DNA of 40,486 nucleotides from positions 1-40,486 of IMG/VR virus record IMGVR_UViG_2563366903_000009; one strand, given 5' to 3'. The DNA is from a virus. Its lineage: Duplodnaviria; Heunggongvirae; Uroviricota; Caudoviricetes. The notes beneath the pieces were generated by a model. The model did no database searches, had not been told where the DNA came from, and worked only from the letters and a program-made list of their open reading frames with translations. Position 1 is the first letter of the stretch. Each line of letters starts with the position of its first letter. Below are positions 3,253-31,299 of the stretch, in pieces. The translations under genes and the position numbers were made by a program.

Positions 3253-3808
3253 CCTCCTGAGGGTTGGTAATTAAGGAGTTCTCCACGGGTCAGGTGGAGT
3301 GCGTGCGCCGGACACGGGTGAGCATCCGGCACTGACAGTTTACTGAAAGGATATGTCCCTGAAAAGTCAGGGCATAACGCGAAAGCGCACGGCGAAATTG
3401 GTCTCTCTGTACGGTGTCGTTAAATTTAGTTCGACCGTGCACTTCCGGTTGTGGCACTCCGCGAAATGGCGCGGCGGTAAGTATGGCTGGGGTTTCCTCC
3501 ATTGCTCCAGAAAATGCACCGGGTTGTCAGGTTGACCATACGCTTAAGTGACAGCCCCGCCACAATACCCATGCGTAGTCTTTGGTGGCATCAGTTCTAC
3601 TCCGTGACTGCTCTGCCACCCTTTTTAAAGTGAATTTTGTGATGCGGTGAATGCGGCTATGCGCACGCGGAACAGTTAAAACCGTAAAGTGGTCTTTTAC
3701 GGGGCGTAACGGGCATCCTTCTGTATTCCGGCGTTAATTGTTAACTGGTTAACGTCACCTGGAGGCACCAGGCACTGCATCACAAAATTCATTGTTGAGG
3801 ACGCGATA

Positions 3809-16195: not shown

Positions 16196-18622
16196 ATGAT
16201 GAAAATCCATAACACAGAGGCGCTCATGTCGGCTGAAATCAGTCGTAGAAGTCTGATGAAAACCTCCGCACTTGGCAGTCTCGCGCTGGCAAGCAGTGCT
16301 TTCACTTTGCCGTTTTCCCAAATGGTCCGAGCGGCACAGGCACCGGTAGAAGAGAAAGCGGTCTGGAGTTCCTGCACCGTTAACTGCGGGAGCCGCTGTC
16401 TGTTACGTTTGCATGTGAAAGATGACACCGTGTACTGGGTAGAGTCTGATACGACAGGTGACGACGTTTACGGTAATCATCAGGTTCGGGCATGTTTACG
16501 CGGGCGCTCTATCCGCCGACGGATGAATCATCCTGACAGGTTGAAATATCCCATGAAGCGCGTCGGCAAGCGCGGTGAAGGTAAATTTGAACGGATAAGT
16601 TGGGACGAAGCCCTGGATACCATCAGTGATAATCTTCGGCGGATCCTAAAAGATTACGGCAATGAGGCTGTACATGTTCTCTATGGAACAGGCGTAGATG
16701 GCGGAAACATCACCAACTCAAACGTCCCGTACCGTCTGATGAACTCTTGCGGTGGTTTTCTCAGTCGCTATGGCAGCTATAGTACCGCACAGATCAGTGC
16801 CGCAATGAGTTATATGTTCGGTGCCAATGATGGCAACAGCCCGGATGATATCGCCAATACGAAACTGGTCGTTATGTTCGGAAATAACCCGGCAGAAACA
16901 CGGATGAGCGGCGGTGGTGTCACTTACTACGTCGAGCAAGCCCGCGAACGTTCAAACGCACGCATGATCGTCATCGATCCACGTTATAACGACACAGCTG
17001 CCGGGCGTGAAGATGAATGGCTGCCCATTCGCCCTGGCACCGATGGCGCACTGGCCTGTGCGATTGCCTGGGTACTGATTACTGAAAACATGGTCGATCA
17101 GCCATTTCTCGACAAATATTGTGTTGGTTACGATGAAAAAACGCTGCCAGCTAACGCTCCACGTAACGCGCATTATAAAGCCTATATTCTGGGCGAAGGG
17201 ACTGACAGCATAGCTAAGACGCCGGAATGGGCAGCAAAAATCACCAGCATCCCAGCAGAAAAAATTATCCAGTTGGCACGAGAGATCGGTTCAGCAAAAC
17301 CGGCTTATATTTGTCAGGGTTGGGGGCCACAACGACATTCCAACGGCGAGCAAACGTCCCGCGCTATTGCCATGCTTTCCGTTCTCACCGGTAACGTCGG
17401 CATAAACGGCGGCAACTCAGGTGTACGCGAAGGTAGCTGGGATCTGGGGGTAGAATGGTTCCCGATGCTCGAGAATCCAGTTAAAACGCAGATTTCCGTC
17501 TTTACATGGACAGATGCCATCGACCATGGTACGGAAATGACCGCGACCCGTGATGGTGTTCGAGGAAAAGAAAAACTGGATGTCCCCATCAAGTTTTTAT
17601 GGTGCTACGCCAGTAACACATTGATCAATCAACATGGCGACATCAATCACACCCATGAGGTGCTTCAGGATGACAGCAAGTGCGAGATGATTGTTGGCAT
17701 TGACCACTTCATGACTGCCTCGGCTAAGTATTGCGATATCCTGTTACCCGACCTGATGCCAACAGAGCAAGAAGACCTTATCTCTCATGAGTCTGCCGGG
17801 AATATGGGCTATGTGATCCTCGCCCAACCCGCAACCTCAGCAAAATTTGAACGCAAACCCATCTACTGGATGCTGAGCGAAGTCGCCAAACGCTTAGGAC
17901 CAGACGTTTATCAAACCTTTACTGAAGGTCGCAGTCAGCATGAATGGATCAAATATCTCCATGCGAAAACGAAGGAACGTAACCCTGAGATGCCCGACTA
18001 CGAGGAGATGAAAACGACCGGGATCTTTAAGAAAAAATGCCCGGAAGAACACTACGTCGCTTTCCGCGCATTCCGTGAAGATCCACAGGCAAATCCGTTG
18101 AAAACACCTTCGGGGAAAATCGAAATTTATTCTGAACGACTGGCGAAGATTGCAGATACCTGGGAATTGAAAAAAGATGAAATTATTCATCCCCTTCCTG
18201 CGTATACCCCAGGTTTTGATGGCTGGGACGATCCCCTGCGGAAAACCTATCCACTGCAACTAACGGGCTTCCACTACAAAGCGCGTACCCACTCCAGCTA
18301 CGGCAATATTGATGTGTTACAGCAGGCCTGCCCACAAGAGGTGTGGATCAACCCTATTGATGCTCAGGCACGCGGTATCCGTCATGGCGATACCGTGCGG
18401 GTATTTAACAATAATGGAGAAATGCTGATTGCCGCAAAAGTGACTCCGCGTATTCTGCCTGGCGTTACCGCCATCGGGCAAGGTGCGTGGCTTAAAGCGG
18501 ATATGTTTGGTGACCGGGTCGATCACGGCGGCAGTATCAATATTCTGACCTCTCACCGCCCTTCACCGCTGGCAAAGGGAAACCCGTCGCACAGCAATCT
18601 TGTCCAGATCGAAAAGGTTTAA
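16196..18622 (+). CDS. ynfF: DMSO-reductase-family molybdoenzyme catalytic subunit YnfF
   Basis: 808-aa ORF with twin-arginine signal (SRRSLMKTSALGSLALA), Cys cluster CTVNCGSRC and molybdopterin oxidoreductase-like body; tandem paralog of ynfE. Confidence 0.9.
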   Translation: MMKIHNTEALMSAEISRRSLMKTSALGSLALASSAFTLPFSQMVRAAQAPVEEKAVWSSCTVNCGSRCLLRLHVKDDTVYWVESDTTGDDVYGNHQVRACLRGRSIRRRMNHPDRLKYPMKRVGKRGEGKFERISWDEALDTISDNLRRILKDYGNEAVHVLYGTGVDGGNITNSNVPYRLMNSCGGFLSRYGSYSTAQISAAMSYMFGANDGNSPDDIANTKLVVMFGNNPAETRMSGGGVTYYVEQARERSNARMIVIDPRYNDTAAGREDEWLPIRPGTDGALACAIAWVLITENMVDQPFLDKYCVGYDEKTLPANAPRNAHYKAYILGEGTDSIAKTPEWAAKITSIPAEKIIQLAREIGSAKPAYICQGWGPQRHSNGEQTSRAIAMLSVLTGNVGINGGNSGVREGSWDLGVEWFPMLENPVKTQISVFTWTDAIDHGTEMTATRDGVRGKEKLDVPIKFLWCYASNTLINQHGDINHTHEVLQDDSKCEMIVGIDHFMTASAKYCDILLPDLMPTEQEDLISHESAGNMGYVILAQPATSAKFERKPIYWMLSEVAKRLGPDVYQTFTEGRSQHEWIKYLHAKTKERNPEMPDYEEMKTTGIFKKKCPEEHYVAFRAFREDPQANPLKTPSGKIEIYSERLAKIADTWELKKDEIIHPLPAYTPGFDGWDDPLRKTYPLQLTGFHYKARTHSSYGNIDVLQQACPQEVWINPIDAQARGIRHGDTVRVFNNNGEMLIAAKVTPRILPGVTAIGQGAWLKADMFGDRVDHGGSINILTSHRPSPLAKGNPSHSNLVQIEKV

Positions 18623-18632
18623 GGAGTAGCCC

Positions 18633-18746
18633 ATGACCACACAATATGGATTTTTTATCGATTCCAGCCGCTGTACTGGCTGTAAAACCTGCGAACTGGC
18701 GTGCAAAGATTTTAAAGTTGGTTACGTATCGTTTAAAATCAATTAG
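18633..18746 (+). pseudogene. ynfG: 5' fragment of Fe-S subunit gene ynfG, truncated by prophage insertion
   Basis: MTTQYGFFIDSSRCTGCKTCELACKDFK (ferredoxin-type Cys motif), then unrelated sequence VGYVSFKIN* from about 18717. RBS AGGAG upstream of ATG at 18633. Confidence 0.7.
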
Positions 18747-18790
18747 ATAGCCCGTCATTTCTGCGCTCACACGTCCCAACATTGAAAAAC

Positions 18791-18824
18791 ATGCAAAGCT
18801 TTGTAAGCCGATGCAAAGCTTTGT
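18791..18824. repeat. Tandem pair of palindromic 14-mers ATGCAAAGCTTTGT, 20 bp centre-to-centre
   Basis: Copies at 18791-18804 and 18811-18824; each contains the perfect palindrome CAAAGCTTTG. Lies about 75 bp inside the prophage end. Confidence 0.45.
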
Positions 18825-18910
18825 GTGTCTCACTTTTGTCCCAATACCAATCCGAATCCACCCTTTGTCATCATTGAGAAATGGCAAGGAAGAAAAGGAT
18901 GTTACTGCAC

Positions 18911-18997
18911 GATTTGACAAATCCGCCAGAGCTATCGCATACTGACCGCACTACAACGTCAGCGGTCAACCGCACCCGATAGCTTTGCGGCTTTTTT
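18911..18997 (+). promoter_or_regulatory. Leader cassette 1 upstream of antirepressor 1: palindrome over a -35 TTGACA, then short hairpin and T6 tract
   Basis: GATTTGACAAATC (18911-18923); GCGGtcaaCCGC (18962-18973), then GCGG and TTTTTT (18992-18997). Same architecture as cassette 2. Confidence 0.4.
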
Positions 18998-19151
18998 ATG
19001 CCTGTTTACAGGTATCGCCATATCAATGGCGGGTCGAGAGAGCCTAATACAATACCCTTTCGGGAAATACGCTCCGCCGTCTGACGCGGTAGTTGAAGCC
19101 CGCCACCCCACTAAGGTGGCAGTCAATACTAAAACGTCAGGAGTCATAATT

Positions 19152-19787
19152 ATGACTAATCAACTCATCCCCGTATTCAACGGTTCTATCTCAAACCAAG
19201 CAGCCCTTCTATGCAATGCTCGCAATCTACACGCTTTCCTTGGGGTTGGTAAACGCTTTGCATCGTGGATAACAGAACGTATTGCTGAATATGGTTTCGT
19301 TGAAAATCAGGACTATATGATTGCTTCCCAAATTCGGGAAGCAAAAGGTAGAGGCGGTCACAACCGCAAGGAATACCACCTCACCCTCGACACAGCCAAA
19401 GAGCTTGCGATGGTTGAACGTAACGAAAAAGGTCGCCAGATCCGCCGCTACTTCATCGAGTGCGAAAAGAAACTTCGCAACATTCAGCCAGTACAAGCAG
19501 AACCACAGCCGCAATTCACAGCCGAGGAAATCATCCTCCTTTGCTACATGCAGCTCTGGATGGAAAAAGCCCAGGACCTCAGCAAACACCTGTATCCCAT
19601 CATGAAAGAGCTGAACTCCTCATACACGAACAAGCTGTATGACATTGCGTTTGAGACCATCTACATGGTGACGAAGAACAGAGATGCGTTACTGAGGGAG
19701 GTAACACGTCTCGACATGTCAAGTTCCGTTATCCAGCGGGCCATGCCAATGCTGAAAAGCCTGCGGGCAAGACAATTCGAGTTTTAA
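19152..19787 (+). CDS. Phage antirepressor, KilA-C-type N-terminal region with shared Ant C-terminal domain
   Basis: ATG at 19152 with AGGAG RBS; N-terminal ...GKRFASWITERIAEYGFVENQDY...EYHLTLDTAKELAMVERNEKGRQIRRYFIECEK; C-terminal ~90 aa near-identical to the second antirepressor. Confidence 0.7.
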   Translation: MTNQLIPVFNGSISNQAALLCNARNLHAFLGVGKRFASWITERIAEYGFVENQDYMIASQIREAKGRGGHNRKEYHLTLDTAKELAMVERNEKGRQIRRYFIECEKKLRNIQPVQAEPQPQFTAEEIILLCYMQLWMEKAQDLSKHLYPIMKELNSSYTNKLYDIAFETIYMVTKNRDALLREVTRLDMSSSVIQRAMPMLKSLRARQFEF

Positions 19788-19792
19788 GGCCA

Positions 19793-19891
19793 GATTTGAC
19801 AAATCCGCATTAACGGGGATATATTCCGCTCCATGGTGCTGAACACACCTTCGAAAGCGGAAACCGCGCCCGTCAGTCATGCGGATTTTTT
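19793..19891 (+). promoter_or_regulatory. Leader cassette 2 upstream of antirepressor 2: same palindrome over -35, -10 TATATT, hairpin and T6 tract
   Basis: GATTTGACAAATC (19793-19805), TTGACA-N18-TATATT (19820-19825); GCGGaaaCCGC (19857-19867), then GCGG and TTTTTT (19886-19891). Confidence 0.45.
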
Positions 19892-20041
19892 ATGTCCATT
19901 TTTCAGATATGGTCGGGTAGCGCGTATACCGAAAAACAGCCGTAAGGCTAAGGATGCGGGCCGAACTTTCGACGGTGTTCAAGTACCCGACCGCCCTGCT
20001 GAACACGGGGTGATCTGAACGAATCGAAAGGACATAAAACT

Positions 20042-20674
20042 ATGAGCACTCAACTTGTATTCCACAATGTTCAATTCCAGACCGTTCAACGAGATGGTCT
20101 ACTGTGGTTGTCTGCCCCCCAAATAGCCAGCGCGTTACAATATGCAGATCAAAGCTCGGTAACACGCATCTATGCCCGTCACGCAGATGAATTCACAAAC
20201 GGTATGACAGCCTCGGTCAAATTGACCGATCCTAAAGGGGACAAGCAAGAGACTCGCATCTTCTCATTACGCGGCGCTCACCTAATAGCGATGTTTGCTC
20301 GAACTCCAATAGCAAAAGAGTTTCGTCGCTGGGTATTGGATATTCTGGACCGTGAAGCTGAAAAAAGCGCTATACCGCCACAACCTCATATTCAGCCTCA
20401 ATTCACAGCAGAAGACATCATCCTGCTCTGCTACGTTCAACTCTGGATGGAAAAAGCACAACAACTCAGTAAACAGCTATACCCCGTCATGAGAGAACTG
20501 AACTCTGATTACTATGGAAAGCTGTTTGATCTGGCCTACGAAACTCGTCATATAACCAACCGGACTCGCGACACATTGCTCCGCGAAGCAGCAAAACTTG
20601 ATCCCGCCAACTATACGGTGCACAGGGCCAGAAGTATGCTGGCGCAACTAAGAGCAAGACAATTTGAATTCTGA
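20042..20674 (+). CDS. Phage antirepressor, Bro-N-type N-terminal domain with shared Ant C-terminal domain
   Basis: MSTQLVFHNVQFQTVQRDGLLWLSAPQIASALQY... (Bro-N-like); C-terminal QPQFTAEDIILLCYVQLWMEKAQQLSK...LRARQFEF paralogous to antirepressor 1. Confidence 0.7.
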   Translation: MSTQLVFHNVQFQTVQRDGLLWLSAPQIASALQYADQSSVTRIYARHADEFTNGMTASVKLTDPKGDKQETRIFSLRGAHLIAMFARTPIAKEFRRWVLDILDREAEKSAIPPQPHIQPQFTAEDIILLCYVQLWMEKAQQLSKQLYPVMRELNSDYYGKLFDLAYETRHITNRTRDTLLREAAKLDPANYTVHRARSMLAQLRARQFEF

Positions 20675-20678
20675 AACC

Positions 20679-20701
20679 AAAGGAGCTTCGGCTCCTTTTT
20701 T
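20679..20701 (+). terminator. Intrinsic terminator after antirepressor 2
   Basis: GGAGC ttcg GCTCC (20682-20695) followed by T6, 8 bp after the stop codon; A-run on the 5' side. Confidence 0.7.
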
Positions 20702-20721
20702 CATGCCTGAAGGAAAGGAAA

Positions 20722-20943
20722 ATGGCAGATATCATCGACAATGCCGCTGAAATCGAAGAATTGCAGCGCAATCTCTCCCTGCAAAAATACAAATCCGATA
20801 GTAATGCCCCATCTGCTACTCATTGTTGCGAGTGTGGCGATCCGATAGATGAGCGGCGACGCCAGGCTGTTCGCGGATGCCGAACTTGCGCCAGTTGCCA
20901 GCAGGATATTGAACTTATCAACAAACAGAGAGGTGTGAAGTGA
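20722..20943 (+). CDS. TraR/DksA-family C4 zinc-finger protein
   Basis: 73-aa ORF with CCECGDPIDERRRQAVRGCRTCASCQ four-Cys motif; RBS AGGAAA upstream. Confidence 0.7.
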   Translation: MADIIDNAAEIEELQRNLSLQKYKSDSNAPSATHCCECGDPIDERRRQAVRGCRTCASCQQDIELINKQRGVK

Positions 20944-22923: not shown

Positions 22924-25900
22924 TTAATCCACTCCCACTTTTTTGTTGTACTCGCGGTTAAACCGATCCACGGCAATTTTCATATCCCGCTCTACCGATT
23001 TCACCATCGCCGACTGTTGCGCCAGACTGAGAGTACTGTCGGCGTAAATGGCATCACGTTGTTTACGCAAATCCTTCAGTCTCTTCCGGGTATCCTGCAT
23101 AAGCCCGTTCATCGACAATTTTCCGTTGTTCTCGTCAATGAATGCCGTTCTTTCTGCACCGGTCAGACTCTTCAGCTCTGCGTGGTACTGCGCAACCTCC
23201 GTCATCCGGTCATACATCTTCTGCTGGTCAGCATACGGCATCACCTCACCCGAAATTTTCCCCAGGAAGGGCACCTGCTGCTCCGGTATATCAATACCGT
23301 TCAGCGATTTCACCGCCGCATCTGTGGTTTTGGAAATGAAGCGCCCTGTCCCTCCGGAGATATAGTCAATCCAGAATTTCAGCGATTCCGGTGTGATATC
23401 CACCGCGCCGGGACGATACTGGCTGCCACCTGAGAACGCATTCAGCCAGGATGCAAACGCCTTGTACGCCTCAGGCGTTGAACGTCTGCCCAGCTGGCTG
23501 TCCGGTTTCGGTGTGCCAAATGGCATGTTCTCCTGGTAAATCTGCGCCCCCATGAAGTTTTCATTCATGGCAAGGTTCGCAAACGGACGCAGAATGGTCG
23601 GCGCTGCATTTTTCAGCAATGCCCCGGACAGTGTTTCCGACGTTTCACTGCCCACAGGACTGAATGCCCCCAGGATACCACCGACAACATTACCGGCAGC
23701 ACGTGAAGCAGTCAGGTCGCCCGCTGCCACACCTTCAGCAGTATGCCCGAGCAGGAAGAAAACGTTGTACCCGTAAGGCAGAGGAATACTCCAGTACTCT
23801 CCGGCCTTGCCCCCGAACACCGATTTCATAATGACGAGGTTACGCTCTTTCACATGAGACGGCACCTTGTCATACCAGTTAACCCCGTCATCATCCTCCC
23901 CCGCAACACTGCGGTTAAGCGAGCCAAGCAGATAACCCGCTCCCACAGCTGCAAGCGCGATTTTCTGCGGTACATTGAGATTCTTCCAGCGAAGGCGCTC
24001 CGGTAACGGCCCGTCGCCATTAAGATGTCCGAGCGTTCTCACCAGGTTTGCGGTCCCCTGAATGCTGGCGTTGGCAAACATATACAGCGAGTTCATCAGC
24101 GCTCCCTGCTCACCACGACGGTTAAAGTTCACCGTCATGTTTTTGGCAAGAGACGCCGCCTGCTGGCGTGACAAACCAGCATCACGGGCGTGTTTATAGG
24201 CAGAAAGACGCAGAGCGTTTTCAACCGCCCCGTTGGCATCCTCGACAAGGTTAAGGAACGAATTCCATGCACCGATACTCTGGCCTTTCCATCCGCCCTT
24301 CGCCAGCGACACAAGGCGATCCATTTCCTTCTGCTGGCCCTCAAGGTCACCCATGTTAAACCAGCCGGTTTTACCTCCGTCCTCAACAAACTCTTTCCAC
24401 ACTTTCTGCCACTGTGCGCCTTTGCCCGTGAGGGTTTTGCCACGCAGACTGGCGTACACGGCTGACATTGCAGAACGGCTGTCTTTGACTACAGCCAGGG
24501 CGGATAAGTTATCCAGCCCTTTCAGTTTACCGTCGCTCCTTCCCTGCTCCGCCTTCAGGTTCATCACCGCCGTCTGCACGTCACGGATGAAGTTACTGAC
24601 CAGAAATTCCGGGTTATACGACGTGTTCACCGTTGCCAGGAAGCGGTTAACTTTCCCCAGCGTACGGATTACGGCGTTACTGGTTTCCGGCCCCATGTTC
24701 TTCATCGCACGCATCAGGCGCGGATCATGAAGTTTAATGTAGTAAGTTTTGCCGTCCTTTTTGGTGGTGAAGTAGCGATCCGCCATCATTGCCATCGGCA
24801 CAGGGCGCTCGACAACTTCGCGAATGGTTTCACCAGTTTCCTGGTCCTTGCGCTCTGCAATCACACGCATTGTATCCGGTCTGTCATCAGTGAATACCTG
24901 CCAGTAATCCTTGTCGGGATTATCCTGTACCAGTTTCAGGAAGGCGTTACCCACTTCATTTTTGCGATTGCGGATCAGCGATTCACTCAAATCCTGTATC
25001 GCCTGAGTGGAAGGAGACTGTGCGCGGGATGCACGCCCCATGGCCTGCTTACTTTCACGCCCGCCGATGGTGAATCCCTTGCCTGTACGTGGCTGTGACA
25101 CCACACCGTCAACATCCTGCCCTTTCAGGGGGACGTAGTAACGGTAGGCTTTCTGCCAGGCATCCACCACGCCGCTCTCTTCCAGTCCTGCCTCACGGAT
25201 AATCTCACGGCGACGGGCCAGCATATCGTCAATAATCCCTGCCAGACGGTCATACTGTGCCTGTTTGCCGCTGTTACGCACACGCTGCATGATTTCCGCC
25301 GCTTCCGCGTTGGTCATCCCCGAACCGCCGTCCGGCATTTTCGGGTTGATTTTCGCAATATGCGCGTTACGTTCCGGCGCGTGACGGGCGTAGAGGTACT
25401 CATCCAGATCGGCCTGCGCAATTTTGTAGTCCGCCAGCAATTTGGCCAGCGGCTGAACGTAGCGCTCCTTCATTACGTTCAGGTCGTTTTCCGCCTTCCC
25501 GTGGAAGAGTTCTTCTGCCATATAAGCGTTGTTACTGTCGTCCACTTTGCCGCCAGTTTTACGGATATTCTCCTGAACAGCTTTCAGCACCTGGAATTTA
25601 TCCTGCATCTGGCGCACAAAACGCGATGCAATAGTCTCTTCCGGTGTCAGACTGCTGGTACGGGAGTAATACGGCCCCTTGCGAATATCCTCAGGATGTA
25701 GTATTTTAAATCCAGAAGAGCCGTTGATGGTGTTCGCCTCGGGCAATTGGAGCCCGACTGCATGAAGCCATTCAGCGGCTTTTTCTTTATTAAGATACAG
25801 CAAAGATGTATCAAGCTGATCCTGCAAAGCACTCCTTTTGTCCTTTCCATAGGCACTGGCAATTTTGTTTATCTCTGCAAATCCATCGCCTTTCACATGG

Positions 25901-28900
25901 GTATGAATTGCAACAATGACAGGATTCCCTTTTGTATCGGTCGCCTGAATTAAAGATACCAACGCATCCGATTCAGTTTTCGAACGCATAACTGCTACCG
26001 GATCTGTCAGAAGTTGAGGCAAATCAGCCAGTGTTTCCACTGACACAAAGTGTTCTCTGATCTCTGGTCTCGTAGCCTTATGCACAACAGATGCAGGCAT
26101 AACCAGTTCAAGATCTGGTGCCCCCAATGCGCGCAAAACACGAGGCGTATCCCCAACTCTGAGCATTTCCCTTCTGGAAACCGATTGTAATCCGGCAATG
26201 CGACGCACTTCTGAAGCAAACTGCTTTGCATCATAGGCGTCAGCCTTAAACGGATCAGGTTTACCACTACGGGAGTACTGAGACGATGCGCCCGCGCCAT
26301 CCTCACGCGGCGTGTAACCTTCCCGCACACGCTGGCCTAACGTACGGATGGTCTCGCGAACAAGTCTGATATCGTTCAGTTCCGTCGGCTTCAGTAACCC
26401 CGTACGACGCAGTACCCCTTTGACCAGGGCAACAACACGCTCCCATGCCGCCACGAATTTATTCGGCTGTTTCTCCGCCATATGTGCCAGAAATTCACCC
26501 GCCTGCACTTCCGGTGATTCCTTACCATAGGACGCATCAACCTTACGCCAGGCTTCACGGATGGTGGCGTTATCACTGTCGCGGGTTTTCAGCACGGTTT
26601 TGATGATCGTCTGATATTCCGCTGGCGTGACAACATGCTCCATGGCATGGTGGATAATCTCGTGACGCAACTTCTCGCGTACGGTCCGCCCGTCAGGGAT
26701 GTTATCCGCCACCAGGACAATTTCACGTTTATCCGGACGATAGAACGCGTGCACCTTGCCGTAACCGTCGAATGATTCACCCGCCAGTGCTTCAGCCTCT
26801 TTCTGTGACTTCACCACGCGGACCTTCAGGTCACTGTCCTTAATGCCACTAATCACGCCACGGGCAACCGCTTCAACCTGCGGGACCGGGCTGCCTTTGG
26901 CTTCCGCACTGCGGTTAACATCCGAAATGAGATTGCCTTCAGGTGTGCGGGTCACGCCCTTACGGGAATAAAACGCAACGCCCTTGTCCGTCTCACGGGT
27001 TTTCAGGGTGCGGAACAGGTGATCGAATGCCTCACGAATGCCACCATCCAGTTCCGCATTCGTCGGATAAGCGTAGGTGTTATCTGTGTTGTGCTCAGGT
27101 GCCTTACGGATATTGACCAGATAATCATTCTCCACGCCAGCCGTACGCGCCTTATCCTGAACATAACGCTCAAAGGCACGTGCCGCCATTTCAACATCCG
27201 TTGACCAGTACGGTTTTGAGCGCACCTCATCGAGAAGAGCTGAACGACGCGGCATGTCACTGTTTTTAATGGCCTCAATGACACCTTTAAACGCGTCGTA
27301 AACCTCCTGACGCACCGGATATTCAGCGTCAACAAACCTGCCGTCTTTAAATACGCGCTTAACACGCCTGGCTTCCGTCATAAAGTCACCACCTGACGTA
27401 ATCTTCCCGTCAGTGGAAACATCATAACGACCAAAATAATTATCCAGTGAATGGAACCATTCGTGCGCCAGCGCACCCGGTCCGTTACCTTTTGTCAGGT
27501 TGATTGCCACCTCACCCGGCTCATAGTGTGCTGCCGCCTTACCCTTACCACGGGCACCAAATGCCAGGCCAAGACGACCGTTCAGGGAAAGCGCTTTTGT
27601 CGGTACATTCAGTACTTCAGCAAGGTCATGCAGCGAGTCATAAGCCCGGTTCAAATCAGCCTGACGACGCGGACCTTCCACGTAGTTACCAAACTGCACA
27701 CCACGAAAACCAAACGCATCGCTGAACTGCTTCGGTGAGACATCACCCTTGCGGCGTTCTGGCCCGGTACGATCGCGGTTGGTGGCGTTACGCTGCTCCT
27801 CACGGGAAATCTCACGCATCTCCTTCACATGACGAACAAGCTCATCACGATGTGAATCAATGTACTTACGCGCATCACTGGCTGACTTAAAGCCACCTCT
27901 CACCCGCATTTTGTTTTTGCCGTAAGCAATAAAAATATCGCCACTGCGGGTATTCCGGTATACGTCAAAGCTGATTTTGTCATCCGGTGACGGTGCTGTT
28001 TTTTCATCACCTTTCGCCTGTGATTTTTCCTCCTGCTCTGCAAACCAGGATTTTGCCTTTGTCAGTAATTCATCCCTGCTTTCCGAGAAAAAGAGATTGC
28101 TCCCCTTATTGTCCTTATTGCGCAGTGAATAAAGTTTCCGTGGCGGATCGTAACGTTTCCCTCCTGCCGCCTGATACACACCGGATACCACCCGATAAGC
28201 AGAAGCCTTGTCTATCTGCGAGGGTGGCAGCGTGCGTAACAGTTGCCATGTGTCCGCGTAACGGGCGGGCATTCTGCCTTCCATCCACTCAGCAAGCCGT
28301 CCGGCAGTCACTTTTCCTTCCAGCATTCCCGCCACACTTGTGCGGATGCTCTTTACACTCTCCACCCACTTCACTGCATTGAGTTTCGTCTTCGCCGGAA
28401 TATCGCTACGATACAGCGCTATCATTGCCAGGGTATCAGCATCGGCACCTTCGTTCGCCAGTTTTGCGTAGTCCGGTTTCGGGAACAGTTTGCTCAGCGG
28501 TTGCGTGACATAATCCCTGTCTTCCAGCGTTTTACCCAGTGTTTCGGCAAGCTGTGCATAACGGTGTTTTGCCGCGCCCTTAATCTCCTCGCCAAAGTCT
28601 TCAATTTTTGCACCACGCGCCTGCTGGTGAGTGCTCGGTTTATCTACCGGCACCGGCACCGGCACCTCAGTATCCGGAACATCGGTTATGGTCTGGCGAT
28701 TATCCCCGGTCTGTCTGCGCGCTTCTGCCTGCTGTGCCAGTTCCGGAAGGGAGTCACGAACCATACGAGGGAGTGATTCAGGATGTGGCATATCAACCCC
28801 ACGCTGTTCAGGTGCAGGAAGTCCTTCACGCACTGGTGCTGTGGCGTTCTGCTCATCCGGTGACGGCAGACCACGACGAACCGGTTCGCTCTCCAGTATT

Positions 28901-31299
28901 TCCCCCTGGCGACCAGCGGCATTTTCCGGTGCCTGCGCACGTCCTTTCTGGAAACTCTGGCCCTTCACCTCACCGGTTGTGGTAAAACGACCACCACGTC
29001 CGGCCTGATTTTCATCCGGCGTACGCGCCACTTCTCCTGGTAACGGATATCCCTGTCCGGGATGAATATCGCCGGGAGCGGGAAGGCGTGGACGCTCAGT
29101 TAACTCCTGTGCTGTCGGACCGGCATCACCTTCAGCCATCTGTGAACGTACAAGCTCCTCTGCCGTCGGCGCGTTGCCACGGGCAAGGCGGGCCTGCACT
29201 TCTGTATCATCCCCCGTGAAACCACGGAATCGCGGGTCACGCATGAACGCGGGCTGCTCCATCGGTTCAGCATCAGCAATACGCTCTCCGTCAGCCAGGG
29301 TGTTAATGGTCTCCGTTGCCACATCTTCAGAGAACGCAGGATTATCCATTTCAACGGCATACTGATTCTCGCCTTTCTTCACTACGGACGGTTTCAGGCC
29401 GGTGGCGCTGGCATTGCGGAAAACATCGCTCCCCAGAGCACTTTTTTCATCCGTGAAATAACGGTTGTCCGGACGCACCTTTTCAATGCGTTCTGCTGGT
29501 CTGGACGCACCACTCCCGTTAATTTCAATACGAACTTCATCCGGATCGCGGAACCGCACCGTCGGGTAAATACTCCCGTCGCCATCATCCGCATTTTCCG
29601 GCTGTGGCTGTGCCTCCGGTCTGGCCTCCTGCTGAGGGCGAAGCACATCACGGATAGCCCGTAACTGCTGCTCTTCAGTATCAGTACGCCCTTCCTTCAG
29701 GCTGAGTTTTCGGTATTCCTCAAGCAGTTCAGGGCGCGGCTTCGCCTTCAGCTCATCCATCACCGCCTGTCGCTTCGCCTGTTCATCCAGTTCATTTAAC
29801 AGCTGGCTGGCGGCTTCCCGGCGATGAACGGCAGACGTGTCTCCCTCAGGTGCCATATCCGCATCAGCATACTGTTCCAGAAGTTGCTCGCGATTCATGC
29901 CCTGCATGGATTCGCGATGCTGTGCCACCGGATCAGCCGGTTCGGGTTGCGGGGCTGCTTCACCCTGCTGTACGACTTCAGCCTCACGCATGGCGGTTTC
30001 TTCTGCGGCCTGACGTTTTCCACGATATCCGGCAACCGCACCGAACGGTGCGCCCATCGCTGCACCAAGAGCGGCTCCTTCGATCGTTGCGTCAGCTACC
30101 CCCTCCCATGGTGATACATCCATTCCGGCAGTCTCACGCAACGTCATATTTTCCTGGTAACGCGAATAGCCGCCCTGCGCCGCATTAATCGTCCCCTGTT
30201 CCGTGGCATTTCTGACAATGCCGCTTTTAACGGTCTTCGCCGTGCCCCGCATCGCCAGATTAAACAACTGAGCATCGCCCAGTTTTGCCGCCATGGCATT
30301 CACAGCCAGCAATTCAGGATCGGTTGCCAGCTGCGCGCGCACCTCATCGGCAACACGCTCTTTTGCCAGATCCATTTTCTGGCGATCAGTAAGCTGTGCG
30401 TGCTGCGGATCTGCATCAATTGACAAAAACGTCTGCTGAAATTTCGGGGACTTCGCCAGCTCAGAGTAATCCGCGTTAAGAACAGAGTCTGCTGCTGCCA
30501 TTGCACTCTGCCCCTGTGCGCTGGCTGAGGAATGGGTGATCAGGCCTGCCTGGAATAAATCCGGCATTTTTTTATCGACAGCTTCTGCTGCCAGTGCGGT
30601 AGCTCTTTCCGGCTGCATCCCTGCCGCAATGTATTTTTTCTCCAGCCCGGCGGTCAGCACTTTTCGCAGAGTGACTTCACCCAGCTTTTTAGTCACACCG
30701 CCTGCAACCAGATCAGGTACAAGCGCACCAATCAGGTTTACACCCTTCGTCAGCAAGACCGCAGAATCATCATAGCCTTCACTCATTGGCGTGTTCAGCG
30801 CACGAACAGCACCCGGCGACATCTGATCTGTCAGCCATTCATCCGAGGCTTTGGCACCATCACTGACTGCCTTGCCTGTGGCCTTCAGACCTTTACCGAC
30901 AGTATCAGTCACCGCGTTTTTCCCTGTTCCATCGGGAATGTTTTTAATCGCATCTCCAACAGAAGGTGGTGCGCCCAGTTCCTTTTGCGTGGAGGAAGGC
31001 GGCATGTAAACATCCGTCATGAAAGACGACAACCCGGCAAGCGTTTTTACAGGATTATTTACAAGTGCATCACCGAGTCCACGGGCCATTTCCCCTGTTC
31101 CCCGGACGGACTGGGCGAAACCTTTACCCATTGTTGGCAATACATCGCCCAGGCTGAACGACGTGCTGTGATCAACAGCGTTCTCCGGGTTGTTGAAAAA
31201 ATCCTGCCAGTAATTTTCTCCCGGCTGCTTAATGTTCAGACTGCTGCGGTTCTGGTTACCCAATTGCGCTTCAGGGCGCTGCTCATCTGAAAAAGCCAT
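22924..31299 (-). CDS. Giant 2,791-aa protein with two HExxH zincin-like motifs; candidate virion-packaged polyvalent protein
   Basis: Single uninterrupted ORF with RBS GGAG before the ATG; HEWFH at aa 1279-1283 (27451-27465) and HEIIH at aa 1546-1550 (26650-26664); acidic/Pro-rich low-complexity region at about aa 430-850; last gene of the minus-strand block. All plus-strand ORFs inside it are antisense artefacts. Confidence 0.8.
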   Translation of the reverse strand: MAFSDEQRPEAQLGNQNRSSLNIKQPGENYWQDFFNNPENAVDHSTSFSLGDVLPTMGKGFAQSVRGTGEMARGLGDALVNNPVKTLAGLSSFMTDVYMPPSSTQKELGAPPSVGDAIKNIPDGTGKNAVTDTVGKGLKATGKAVSDGAKASDEWLTDQMSPGAVRALNTPMSEGYDDSAVLLTKGVNLIGALVPDLVAGGVTKKLGEVTLRKVLTAGLEKKYIAAGMQPERATALAAEAVDKKMPDLFQAGLITHSSASAQGQSAMAAADSVLNADYSELAKSPKFQQTFLSIDADPQHAQLTDRQKMDLAKERVADEVRAQLATDPELLAVNAMAAKLGDAQLFNLAMRGTAKTVKSGIVRNATEQGTINAAQGGYSRYQENMTLRETAGMDVSPWEGVADATIEGAALGAAMGAPFGAVAGYRGKRQAAEETAMREAEVVQQGEAAPQPEPADPVAQHRESMQGMNREQLLEQYADADMAPEGDTSAVHRREAASQLLNELDEQAKRQAVMDELKAKPRPELLEEYRKLSLKEGRTDTEEQQLRAIRDVLRPQQEARPEAQPQPENADDGDGSIYPTVRFRDPDEVRIEINGSGASRPAERIEKVRPDNRYFTDEKSALGSDVFRNASATGLKPSVVKKGENQYAVEMDNPAFSEDVATETINTLADGERIADAEPMEQPAFMRDPRFRGFTGDDTEVQARLARGNAPTAEELVRSQMAEGDAGPTAQELTERPRLPAPGDIHPGQGYPLPGEVARTPDENQAGRGGRFTTTGEVKGQSFQKGRAQAPENAAGRQGEILESEPVRRGLPSPDEQNATAPVREGLPAPEQRGVDMPHPESLPRMVRDSLPELAQQAEARRQTGDNRQTITDVPDTEVPVPVPVDKPSTHQQARGAKIEDFGEEIKGAAKHRYAQLAETLGKTLEDRDYVTQPLSKLFPKPDYAKLANEGADADTLAMIALYRSDIPAKTKLNAVKWVESVKSIRTSVAGMLEGKVTAGRLAEWMEGRMPARYADTWQLLRTLPPSQIDKASAYRVVSGVYQAAGGKRYDPPRKLYSLRNKDNKGSNLFFSESRDELLTKAKSWFAEQEEKSQAKGDEKTAPSPDDKISFDVYRNTRSGDIFIAYGKNKMRVRGGFKSASDARKYIDSHRDELVRHVKEMREISREEQRNATNRDRTGPERRKGDVSPKQFSDAFGFRGVQFGNYVEGPRRQADLNRAYDSLHDLAEVLNVPTKALSLNGRLGLAFGARGKGKAAAHYEPGEVAINLTKGNGPGALAHEWFHSLDNYFGRYDVSTDGKITSGGDFMTEARRVKRVFKDGRFVDAEYPVRQEVYDAFKGVIEAIKNSDMPRRSALLDEVRSKPYWSTDVEMAARAFERYVQDKARTAGVENDYLVNIRKAPEHNTDNTYAYPTNAELDGGIREAFDHLFRTLKTRETDKGVAFYSRKGVTRTPEGNLISDVNRSAEAKGSPVPQVEAVARGVISGIKDSDLKVRVVKSQKEAEALAGESFDGYGKVHAFYRPDKREIVLVADNIPDGRTVREKLRHEIIHHAMEHVVTPAEYQTIIKTVLKTRDSDNATIREAWRKVDASYGKESPEVQAGEFLAHMAEKQPNKFVAAWERVVALVKGVLRRTGLLKPTELNDIRLVRETIRTLGQRVREGYTPREDGAGASSQYSRSGKPDPFKADAYDAKQFASEVRRIAGLQSVSRREMLRVGDTPRVLRALGAPDLELVMPASVVHKATRPEIREHFVSVETLADLPQLLTDPVAVMRSKTESDALVSLIQATDTKGNPVIVAIHTHVKGDGFAEINKIASAYGKDKRSALQDQLDTSLLYLNKEKAAEWLHAVGLQLPEANTINGSSGFKILHPEDIRKGPYYSRTSSLTPEETIASRFVRQMQDKFQVLKAVQENIRKTGGKVDDSNNAYMAEELFHGKAENDLNVMKERYVQPLAKLLADYKIAQADLDEYLYARHAPERNAHIAKINPKMPDGGSGMTNAEAAEIMQRVRNSGKQAQYDRLAGIIDDMLARRREIIREAGLEESGVVDAWQKAYRYYVPLKGQDVDGVVSQPRTGKGFTIGGRESKQAMGRASRAQSPSTQAIQDLSESLIRNRKNEVGNAFLKLVQDNPDKDYWQVFTDDRPDTMRVIAERKDQETGETIREVVERPVPMAMMADRYFTTKKDGKTYYIKLHDPRLMRAMKNMGPETSNAVIRTLGKVNRFLATVNTSYNPEFLVSNFIRDVQTAVMNLKAEQGRSDGKLKGLDNLSALAVVKDSRSAMSAVYASLRGKTLTGKGAQWQKVWKEFVEDGGKTGWFNMGDLEGQQKEMDRLVSLAKGGWKGQSIGAWNSFLNLVEDANGAVENALRLSAYKHARDAGLSRQQAASLAKNMTVNFNRRGEQGALMNSLYMFANASIQGTANLVRTLGHLNGDGPLPERLRWKNLNVPQKIALAAVGAGYLLGSLNRSVAGEDDDGVNWYDKVPSHVKERNLVIMKSVFGGKAGEYWSIPLPYGYNVFFLLGHTAEGVAAGDLTASRAAGNVVGGILGAFSPVGSETSETLSGALLKNAAPTILRPFANLAMNENFMGAQIYQENMPFGTPKPDSQLGRRSTPEAYKAFASWLNAFSGGSQYRPGAVDITPESLKFWIDYISGGTGRFISKTTDAAVKSLNGIDIPEQQVPFLGKISGEVMPYADQQKMYDRMTEVAQYHAELKSLTGAERTAFIDENNGKLSMNGLMQDTRKRLKDLRKQRDAIYADSTLSLAQQSAMVKSVERDMKIAVDRFNREYNKKVGVD

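Follow-up and report, generated by a model that had tools for sequence, protein, structure and literature searches.

In a stretch of 40,486 nucleotides (nt) of DNA from a virus of the Caudoviricetes (IMG/VR record IMGVR_UViG_2563366903_000009, positions 1 to 40,486, hereafter the window) two antirepressor genes, ant1 and ant2, follow each other on the plus strand, each behind a leader of its own. Analysis of these leaders indicates that each ant gene is likely to be controlled by its own co-transcribed antisense RNA cassette of the type known from immI (c4) of phage P1. With lengths of 241 and 249 bp the leaders can be aligned with each other, as expected from an initial annotation made from the sequence alone, which had described duplicated leaders of about 250 bp. 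Both have the same layout, consisting of a predicted sigma-70 promoter, a first pair of boxes (a1 and b1) followed by GCGG, a hairpin with a tract of six T (T6), an RNA of the sRNA-Xcc1 family and a second pair of boxes (a2 and b2) placed on the Shine-Dalgarno sequence of the ant gene (Table 1). Neither the Rfam sRNA-Xcc1 element nor the two copies of the target boxes in each leader had been noticed in the initial annotation, and in RefSeq no RNA is annotated in the leader.

sRNA-Xcc1 elements and complementary boxes

By its match to the Rfam model, the largest conserved element of the leaders is a structured RNA of 85–90 nt, sRNA-Xcc1 (RF02221, curated gathering score 53 bits), and both matches in the window span the full model, positions 1–87. 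The elements are situated between T6 and the ribosome-binding site, on the plus strand and 40–41 nt upstream of the ant start codons. The model describes a three-way junction closed by a stem of 9 bp, in which hairpin 1 is long and has a tetraloop and hairpin 2 has a larger loop; a single-stranded 3' junction and a CC-rich tail follow. The end of the elements resembles that of a tRNA, the 9-bp closing stem being followed by one nucleotide and then CC(C/A).

When comparing the elements with their surroundings it was found that each has, in its hairpin-2 loop (b') and its 3' junction (a'), sequences complementary to two sites in the same leader. In the first cassette CUGACG..GUAGU of the element (Xcc1-1) pairs with ACUAC..CGUCAG in the leader and with ACUA..CGUCAGG at the Shine-Dalgarno sequence, and in the second CUUUCGA..GGUGUUCA (Xcc1-2) pairs with UGAACAC..UCGAAAG in the leader and with UGAAC..UCGAAAG at the Shine-Dalgarno sequence. 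The box sequences are wholly different between the two cassettes and the complementarity is retained. Calculated duplex energies with the leader were -23.9 (cassette 1) and -28.6 kcal/mol (cassette 2) for the cognate pairs against -13.1 and -16.8 kcal/mol for the cross pairs; with the ribosome-binding site they were -15.2 (Xcc1-1) and -19.8 kcal/mol (Xcc1-2) against -9.5 and -11.3 kcal/mol. The boxes a1-b1 bind the Xcc1 surface 5–9 kcal/mol more strongly than a2-b2 and could for that reason act as a decoy.

Cassette 2 contains a further complementarity, between the T-tract with the sequence following it and the Shine-Dalgarno region of ant2 (Table 1). This pairing is part of the minimum-free-energy fold of the whole leader and is kept, with G-U changes, in four related loci (L063, L064, L103 and L034), and the segment is a possible cis-acting anti-Shine-Dalgarno sequence, adding an extra layer in this cassette. 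The start codon of ant1 is located in the 3' strand of a small hairpin, AGUCAU-AAUU-AUGACU (19142–19157), with an equivalent in most related cassettes (GGTCATCATGACC), and this hairpin may be an additional brake on translation.

Table 1. Positions of the features of the two ant cassettes in the window
Feature	Position	Strand	Sequence or content	Basis
Palindrome, copy 1	18911–18923	+	GATTTGACAAATC, over the -35 of cassette 1	exact match
Palindrome, copy 2	19793–19805	+	GATTTGACAAATC, 6 nt past the ant1 stop codon	exact match
Predicted sigma-70 promoter 1	18914–18943	+	TTGACA, 18-nt spacer, CATACT (ends 18943)	promoter scan 10/12; inferred start near 18950
Predicted sigma-70 promoter 2	19796–19825	+	TTGACA, 18-nt spacer, TATATT (ends 19825)	promoter scan 11/12; inferred start near 19832
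Long-range helix 1	18920–18995	+	promoter spacer, -10 and CCGC pair with GCGG, terminator loop and terminator 3' strand	-30.2 kcal/mol, z = -4.3
Long-range helix 2	19801–19888	+	AAATCCGCAT/ATGCGGATTT, ACGGG/CCCGT, TTCCGCT/AGCGGAA; encloses promoter 2	inverted repeat I18; -34.6 kcal/mol, z = -2.6
Leader boxes 1	18950–18965	+	a1 ACTAC 18950–18954, b1 CGTCAG 18957–18962, then GCGG	direct repeat with the ribosome-binding site region, family D7
Leader boxes 2	19835–19860	+	a1 TGAACAC 19840–19846 (loop of hairpin GGTG/CACC), b1 TCGAAAG 19851–19857, GCGG	inverted repeat I12; fold
Small hairpin	18962–18973	+	GCGG-TCAA-CCGC, competes with the terminator stem for CCGC	in minimum-free-energy fold of the leader from its own promoter
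Terminator-like hairpin 1	18970–18997	+	CCGCA / 11-nt loop CCCGATAGCTT / TGCGG, then C and T6	stem covariation
Terminator-like hairpin 2	19864–19891	+	CCGCG / CCCGTCAGTCA / TGCGG, then A and T6	fold and stem covariation
Possible anti-Shine-Dalgarno segment	19886–19900	+	T-tract and ATGTCCATT (AUGUCC), complementary to the ant2 Shine-Dalgarno region 20027–20041 (GGACATAAAA; GGACAUAAAA)	inverted repeat I7, 92% complementary
Xcc1 RNA 1	19028–19112	+	b' CTGACG 19081–19086, a' GTAGT 19089–19093, tail ACCC	RF02221, 53.0 bits
Xcc1 RNA 2	19911–20000	+	b' CTTTCGA 19966–19972, a' GGTGTTCA 19974–19981, tail GCCC	RF02221, 67.7 bits
Target boxes 1	19128–19143	+	a2 ACTA, b2 CGTCAGG (19135–19141), over ant1 Shine-Dalgarno GGAG 19140–19143	complementary to Xcc1-1
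Target boxes 2	20016–20032	+	a2 TGAAC, b2 TCGAAAG (20024–20030), over ant2 Shine-Dalgarno AGGA	complementary to Xcc1-2
ant1	19152–19787	+	AntA/AntB N-terminal domain (PF08346) and P22_AR_C	Pfam E = 2.7e-26 and 7.3e-07
ant2	20042–20674	+	Bro-N and P22_AR_C	Pfam E = 3.6e-11 and 3.2e-07
Canonical hairpin after ant2	20680–20701	+	AAGGAGC-TTCG-GCTCCTT and T-run, then cassette-boundary motif TTTTTCATGCCTG	read from sequence; repeat D17, 92% identical to 18992–19004

Covariation in related phages

To follow the boxes in related phages 114 phage loci were fetched with Ant1 and Ant2 as queries, and the search covered 116 sequences (115 loci and the window). A hidden Markov model of the element (nhmmer) revealed 119 copies in 96 of the 116 sequences, all on the ant strand; in loci centred on the gene the distance from the end of the element to the ant start is about 40 nt. 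Among the 29 unique cassettes 20 types of hairpin 2 can be distinguished, between which the loop, the b1 box (7–8 nt before GCGG) and the b2 box (7–8 nt running into the Shine-Dalgarno sequence) change together. Examples, given as loop b' and box b1/b2, are CTTATTTG with CAAATAAG, CTTGTAAG with CTTACAAG, CTTTGAAG with CTTCAAAG, CCTATATT with AATATAGG, CTGTTTGT with ACAAACAG, CTTGCTG with CAGCAAG and CCTAATA with TATTAGG.

In 17 of the 20 types there was exact complementarity over 7 nt or more to the own ribosome-binding site region, compared to 4.5% of the non-cognate pairs, and in 19 of the 20 to the own leader, compared to 9.2%. The mean duplex energy of cognate and non-cognate pairs was -19.2 vs -12.1 kcal/mol at the ribosome-binding site and -24.2 vs -16.8 kcal/mol in the leader, and in a permutation test the cognate mean was reached in 0 out of 20000 cases. 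The junction box covaries as well, CUCAGU occurring with ACUGA and CUCUAGU with ACUAGA. Tandem cassettes, two or three in a row, were found in 22 sequences (21 loci and the window), never sharing the same loop. The suggestion in the initial annotation that the leader could encode a short regulatory RNA holds in that the leader does encode a regulatory RNA; the regulator would, however, be the sRNA-Xcc1 element downstream of T6, with its specificity in the a and b boxes and not in GCGG/CCGC.

Distribution of the family outside these phages

A pattern consisting of hairpin 1 only was searched in contigs representing one genome per species and matched at least 120 loci. Among the matches listed, to which all counts in this section refer, are Xanthomonadales, Enterobacterales, Pasteurellaceae, Neisseriaceae, Desulfovibrionaceae, alphaproteobacteria and others. 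Of 87 distinct leaders 67 had a b1 box of 7 nt or more, against 4.3% for non-cognate combinations; it lies 72–85 nt before the element in the Xanthomonadales copies where positions were tabulated. A b2 box of at least 7 nt, located 6–13 nt before the start codon, was found in 24 out of 55 (non-cognate 1.4%), the loci with b2 being essentially all the non-Xanthomonadales members. When b2 was looked for downstream of Xanthomonadales elements, the recurrent matches were only G+C-rich words of coding sequence unrelated to the loop. A ranking of the cognate pairs by duplex energy across genomes, which differ greatly in G+C content, was noisy (rank 0 in 8/55) with a significant mean, and was replaced by the counts of exact complements given above.

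Judging from their domains, the genes following Xcc1 elements elsewhere mostly encode proteins of antirepressor type (Bro-N, Rha, AntA, ORF6N, KilA-N, P22_AR). The 62 downstream open reading frames (ORFs) included 9 with Bro-N, 6 with Phage_pRha, 5 with SymE_toxin, 4 with P22_AR_C, 3 each with AntA and ORF6N and 2 each with KilA-N and P22_AR_N. In loci of the Xanthomonas type (L117, L143, L156, L186, L220 and others) the Xcc1 module precedes SymE-toxin genes or genes for unannotated proteins of about 200–250 aa.

Leader hairpins and termination

The hairpin GCGG-loop-CCGC, the second GCGG and T6 followed by ATG, all reported in the initial annotation, were found again in both leaders (the hairpin of cassette 2 at 19857–19867; second GCGG, T6 and ATG at 18987–19000 in leader 1 and 19881–19894 in leader 2). 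The small hairpin of cassette 1 is not kept in every cassette type. Directly before the T-run a hairpin is conserved, its pairing being maintained by at least 10 different stem sequences, including CCGCA/UGCGG, CCAAC/GUUGG, CCACA/UGUGG, CCCACC/GGUGGG, UCAC/GUGA and GCCUU/AAGGC, and its loop has the conserved motif CCG-NN-A. A consensus terminator scan did not flag the leader hairpins (5-bp stem, 11-nt loop, T6), and terminator-like hairpin 1 was missed by a simple scan because its loop exceeds 8 nt. The loop motif CCCG(A/U)(C/U)AG (18975–18985 and 19869–19879) is kept from Escherichia coli to Xanthomonas and resembles the 3' strand of the Xcc1 closing stem (CACCCGAC). Pairing of this motif with the 5' strand of that stem was considered and rejected, as no covariation was seen in cassette 1.

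Short leader RNAs starting at the cassettes' own start sites fold weakly (-8.2 kcal/mol in cassette 1 and -13.5 kcal/mol in cassette 2, z near 0). RNA starting upstream of the cassette promoter, and only such RNA, can form the long-range helices of Table 1, which end at the same U-tract. Three cassette types can form such an extended helix, with sequences that differ, and four lack it. Helix 2 is probably a terminator for ant1 transcripts, and the folds suggest that termination at T6 may be strong for transcripts that reach it from upstream and leaky for those of the cassette itself. Transcripts from upstream could be those of the host ynfEFGH operon for cassette 1 and those of ant1 for cassette 2.

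The first alternative to be weighed is that attenuation, possibly guided by RNA, is the main control. Here the GCGG/CCGC hairpin would be an anti-terminator, and binding of Xcc1 RNA to the nascent a1-b1-GCGG, comparable to the action of P4 CI and N15 CA RNA, would let CCGCA/UGCGG and T6 terminate transcription so that only the short leader is made. This corresponds to the switch between terminator and anti-terminator folds proposed in the initial annotation, with the effector identified. In the window CCGC can indeed pair with either GCGG; the two pairings are mutually exclusive, and in leaders from the own promoter the greater stability is that of the small hairpin. The cognate leader duplex reaches CGG of GCGG across a bulge of 1–2 nt (with a GCCG stem in hairpin 2, the b1 duplex is prolonged by GCGG into this stem across a small bulge), and a hairpin stands before the T-run in most leaders. 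However, homologous cassettes with a terminator stem other than CCGC do not have this alternative, even if most of them retain GCGG behind b1. By this comparison GCGG/CCGC is not a conserved switch, as it has disappeared in homologues with the stems CCAAC/GTTGG, CCACA/TGTGG or CCCACC/GGTGGG. In these, and where the stem is TCAC, the rest of the cassette is kept without the anti-terminator pairing. Attenuation would also leave the constant place of b2 on the Shine-Dalgarno sequence unexplained, and it is considered an unlikely main control. What stands of the proposed switch is the alternative pairing within the window and the conserved hairpin before T6.

Promoters and the palindrome

The palindrome of 13 bp that the initial annotation had placed over the -35 sequence TTGACA of both leaders is exact, and -10 partners were identified at 18-nt spacing. 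The predicted promoter lies at equal distance from a1b1 in all cassette types, also in an isrK locus (L102). A promoter scan of 18900–20050 predicted no promoter on the minus strand in the leaders.

A second alternative, which the initial annotation had implied by asking for a protein that binds the palindrome, is that the palindrome is an operator and that both ant promoters are regulated mainly by a repressor of the phage or the host, with the RNAs secondary, comparable to Mnt/Arc at Pant of P22 or C1 at Op51 of P1. The perfect 6-1-6 palindrome is centred on the -35 box, has the same sequence in both cassettes and no further copy in the window, and it is found in 15 of the 27 unique cassettes among related phages. 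Against this, the core TTG-A-CAA is self-complementary on its own, in any consensus -35 followed by A, and the palindrome adds just three outer pairs per side; of 11 promoter contexts 3 have it in full, and in the other 8 the arms vary without compensation. Its right arm also doubles as part of the long RNA helix AAAUCCGC/GCGGAUUU, and domain annotation revealed no candidate binding protein among those encoded nearby. Further copies pointing to a regulator gene were looked for by exact search of the whole window and ruled out. Judged from the 11 promoter contexts the palindrome is largely a self-complementary -35 core with a palindromic character that is not conserved; on the same grounds a dedicated binding protein is possible and not required, and a repressor as main regulator is unlikely.

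Proposed mechanism

In the mechanism which is preferred here, that of an antisense cassette of the c4 type, a constitutive-looking sigma-70 promoter would start a leader with a1 and b1 followed by the weak hairpin and T6, where some of the transcripts would end. Transcripts passing T6 would contain the three-way-junction Xcc1 RNA of 85–90 nt, then a2-b2 and ant. The Xcc1 RNA is probably excised, by analogy with the processing of c4 by RNase P, and its hairpin-2 loop b' and 3' junction a' would pair with a2-b2, which cover the 5' part of the Shine-Dalgarno sequence and 7–15 nt upstream, and block translation of ant. The copy a1-b1 in the short leader, being the stronger binder, probably competes for this RNA, both in cis, as part of the precursor, and in trans, as an IsrK-like RNA relieving repression; short leader in excess would then be expected to derepress ant in the manner of IsrK. 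Ant1 and Ant2 would be held off by separate RNAs which, having different boxes, do not cross-react. In this mechanism the membership in the family, the layout and the complementarity with its covariation are observations; the direction of regulation, the excision of the RNA and the function of a1-b1 as a decoy are inferred.

Several points weigh against it. The contiguous Watson-Crick core at the ribosome-binding site is short, 6–7 bp for b and 4–5 bp for a, and Xcc1 element 1 scores exactly at the Rfam gathering threshold. No match to the C4 clan or isrK was obtained in 18700–20760 even at E ≤ 10; the same Rfam search, in an annotation run on 20 of the Ant loci, detects C4 and c4-2 in L102, L035, L006 and L040. 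As the C4 and isrK models do not match the leaders, the kinship to c4 rests on architecture and position. The promoters, start sites and termination are predictions. In the IsrK system a full-length RNA with a1 and a' paired has been reported to be translationally inactive, which makes the sign of the a1-b1 effect in cis uncertain. Finally, among the matches listed the Xanthomonadales copies keep the a1-b1-GCGG-terminator module with no b2 found at the downstream ribosome-binding site, so that the sRNA-Xcc1 family as read from these genomes does not always operate by pairing of b2, and the Xanthomonas-type copies, lacking a loop-complementary box there, may work differently.

That the Xcc1 elements are trans-acting RNAs for host mRNAs, standing upstream of ant by chance, is very improbable, even if papers call sRNA-Xcc1 trans-acting and virulence-linked, since the one segment of the RNA that is hypervariable changes together with two sites of the same transcript in 20 phage types and 87 leaders elsewhere (among the matches listed), a conserved host target would keep the loop constant, and position and orientation relative to ant are fixed; trans action on the same boxes is possible.

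Extending the antisense cassette to the whole sRNA-Xcc1 family is a more tentative step. The family could possibly, although we would not count on it, be a programmable c4-like module of RNA immunity in which a hypervariable loop of 7–8 nt sets the specificity and a1-b1 is a built-in sponge, forming an RNA-only toggle for antirepressors and, in Xanthomonas, SymE toxins. Stacked loops would then gate each antirepressor independently, and the T-tract would be strong for upstream transcripts and leaky for the promoter embedded in its own stem.

The prophage and its ant genes

The left part of the window is E. coli-like chromosome. It contains the antisense RNA DicF at 3570–3621 on the plus strand (Rfam RF00039, 58.9 bits), which points to a cryptic prophage of the Qin type located, as in E. 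coli K-12, upstream of the ynf operon. A reductase gene of the ynfF type (16196–18622) is followed by a remnant of ynfG (18633–18746) comprising only its first 37 codons; the prophage starts at about 18.75 kb, inside ynfG, and extends rightwards, and in E. coli genomes sharing the same junction it is likewise inserted in ynfG. The host ynfEFGH operon is transcribed toward the first ant cassette, so that host read-through would enter the prophage unless terminated. In 18789–18828 the sequence ATGCAAAGCTTTGT is present twice, 20 bp apart (18791 and 18811), each copy itself palindromic; together the copies form a hairpin of 17 pairs followed by a T-rich tail, which the terminator scan calls. The repeat pair could be an arm element of the attachment site or a terminator at the prophage end.

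The first prophage genes past the junction are the two ant genes. Ant2 has the Bro-N domain anticipated in the initial annotation and Ant1 an AntA/AntB domain in place of the expected KilA-C. The C-terminal part of about 90 aa, described there as near-identical, turned out to be about 63% identical over the last 93 residues or so and 50% over 137 aa. An in-frame ATG at 19026 lengthens the ant1 ORF to 253 aa across the Xcc1 element (19026–19787); judging from homologues and the Shine-Dalgarno sequence the true start is 19152, and gene callers may over-extend ant1. The motif TTTTT(T/C)ATGCCTG ending each leader terminator is also present at 20697–20709, after the ant2 terminator and before a traR-like gene, and may mark boundaries where cassettes are exchanged. 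A/G-TG after the T-run is preserved in Xanthomonadales too (TTTTTTGTGCC). Genes after ant2 encode TraR/DksA, DUF4752, Ead/Ea22 and DUF551 proteins, and further on an ORF of 2791 aa on the minus strand (22924–31299) contains an HExxH-type motif and is typical of the giant proteins of short-tailed phages resembling those that carry Shiga toxin (Stx).

The nearest phage relatives are Sepvirinae of the Stx-phage group, namely Shigella phage POCJ13 (92% identity) and phage 75/02 Stx. As antirepressors are able to cause induction independently of the SOS pathway, and the present prophage is a member of the Stx-phage group, the silencing of ant bears on prophage induction and, in toxin-carrying relatives, on toxin release.

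Comparison with known systems

In the literature on Xanthomonas and Xylella sRNA-Xcc1 is described as integron-borne, trans-acting, virulence-linked and under control of HrpG/HrpX. A 2025 paper reports sRNA-Xcc1 upstream of symE with its mechanism unknown, and a paper on APSE phage a copy upstream of an ORF6N gene. A link between the family and antirepressor control was not found in the searchable literature and appears to be undescribed, and the present analysis gives a testable function to an Rfam family which current papers treat as a virulence RNA of unknown mechanism. The dozens of natural loop and target pairs differing in sequence could be used to study or engineer antisense control without cross-talk. 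The copy of Xanthomonas campestris belongs to the same Rfam family as those of the window. Xanthomonadales copies have the same upstream a1-b1-GCGG-terminator module, and differ in the b2 box, which they lack at the downstream ribosome-binding site.

The P22 immI region (Pant, Mnt, Arc and sar RNA) is similar in that ant is silenced in the lysogen by a module including an antisense RNA at the ant ribosome-binding site, as proposed here. Unlike sar, which is transcribed from the opposite strand, the RNA is here encoded on the same strand upstream of its target, and among the neighbouring genes (those listed above after ant2) there is no arc or mnt. P4 CI RNA and N15 CA RNA are likewise small processed leader RNAs pairing with repeats in the same transcript, the processing being presumed in our case. 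Their output is termination of transcription; here the downstream box lies on the Shine-Dalgarno sequence, and an effect of a1-b1 on termination is possible and not conserved. In phage Phi24B the microRNA-sized 24B_1 with its target d_ant was set aside because the two lie elsewhere in the genome (in the lom-vb_24B_43 region and downstream of R), as was the ant of Fogg et al., located near Q/pR' and not at the genome end.

Gifsy-1 IsrK/orf45/anrP (RF01394) has a short leader ending at an intrinsic terminator just upstream of the antirepressor gene, with partial read-through, and by pairing of the short RNA with the long one the translation of the latter is changed. The leaders here, with their predicted promoter and a conserved if weak hairpin before T6, may give rise to a comparable pair of transcripts. 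Short terminated IsrK acts in trans on the read-through transcript isrK-orf45-anrP and turns on translation, its residues G28/G31 pairing with C159/C162. In other loci with Ant homologues the slot of sRNA-Xcc1 is occupied by isrK and then C4 (L102 and L006), by C4 alone (L035) or by c4-2 (L040). In L102 (1265–1447) and L006 (286–471) isrK is directly followed by a C4 element before the Ant homologues, and isrK is there the a1-b1 leader of that element. In coordinates of L102, which is not Gifsy-1 itself, G28/G31 and C159/C162 would be located in a1 and the a' junction of the C4 element; the orf45 region of the IsrK paper, with the processed fragment STnc1160, seems to coincide with the C4-like RNA, the G28/G31-C159/C162 helix then being a1:a'. 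In contrast to IsrK, the leader here is shorter, about 45–60 nt, and has no match to the isrK model. C4, isrK and all other Rfam families were rejected for the short leaders, with no match at E ≤ 10.

The closest parallel is c4 of P1 and P7 (Rfam C4, RF01695, clan CL00128), which according to a review blocks antirepressor synthesis by pairing around the ribosome-binding site and is the basis of P1/P7 heteroimmunity. The c4 precursor is a substrate of RNase P according to the literature. As in immI, the RNA stands before the antirepressor gene on the same strand and would be co-transcribed with it; its structure comprises a closing stem and two hairpins and ends in a CC-rich 3' tail; a' and b' are complementary to a2 and b2 at the ribosome-binding site, with a second copy, a1 and b1, upstream; and the specificity would be set by the box sequence, as in P1/P7 heteroimmunity. 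The C4 and Xcc1 models both have 87 positions and share closing stem, tetraloop hairpin, large-loop hairpin, junction and CC-rich tail. C4 stands in the same position before homologues of these Ant proteins, and the order in C4 loci is the same, with a1, b1-(G)CGG, a hairpin with U-tract, the RNA with a'b', a2 and then b2 at the Shine-Dalgarno sequence.

The cassettes differ from P1 in a closing stem of 9 bp instead of 17 bp and in a longer hairpin 1 with an internal loop. Translation of icd is needed for expression of ant in P1, through translational coupling and Rho polarity; here a2 and b2 are contiguous and directly on the ant Shine-Dalgarno sequence with no icd-like ORF between element and ant, and there is consequently no need for either. 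Two or three tandem cassettes of different specificity occur, and the promoter is embedded in the previous terminator. The antisense principle is already known from P1 c4 and the RNA belongs to an existing Rfam family; with direct targeting of the ant Shine-Dalgarno sequence, a scaffold that the C4 model does not detect, stacked specificities and the promoter in the previous terminator, the system is a variant of P1 rather than a copy of it, and C4, c4-2, isrK and sRNA-Xcc1 are linked as interchangeable parts of one regulatory design.

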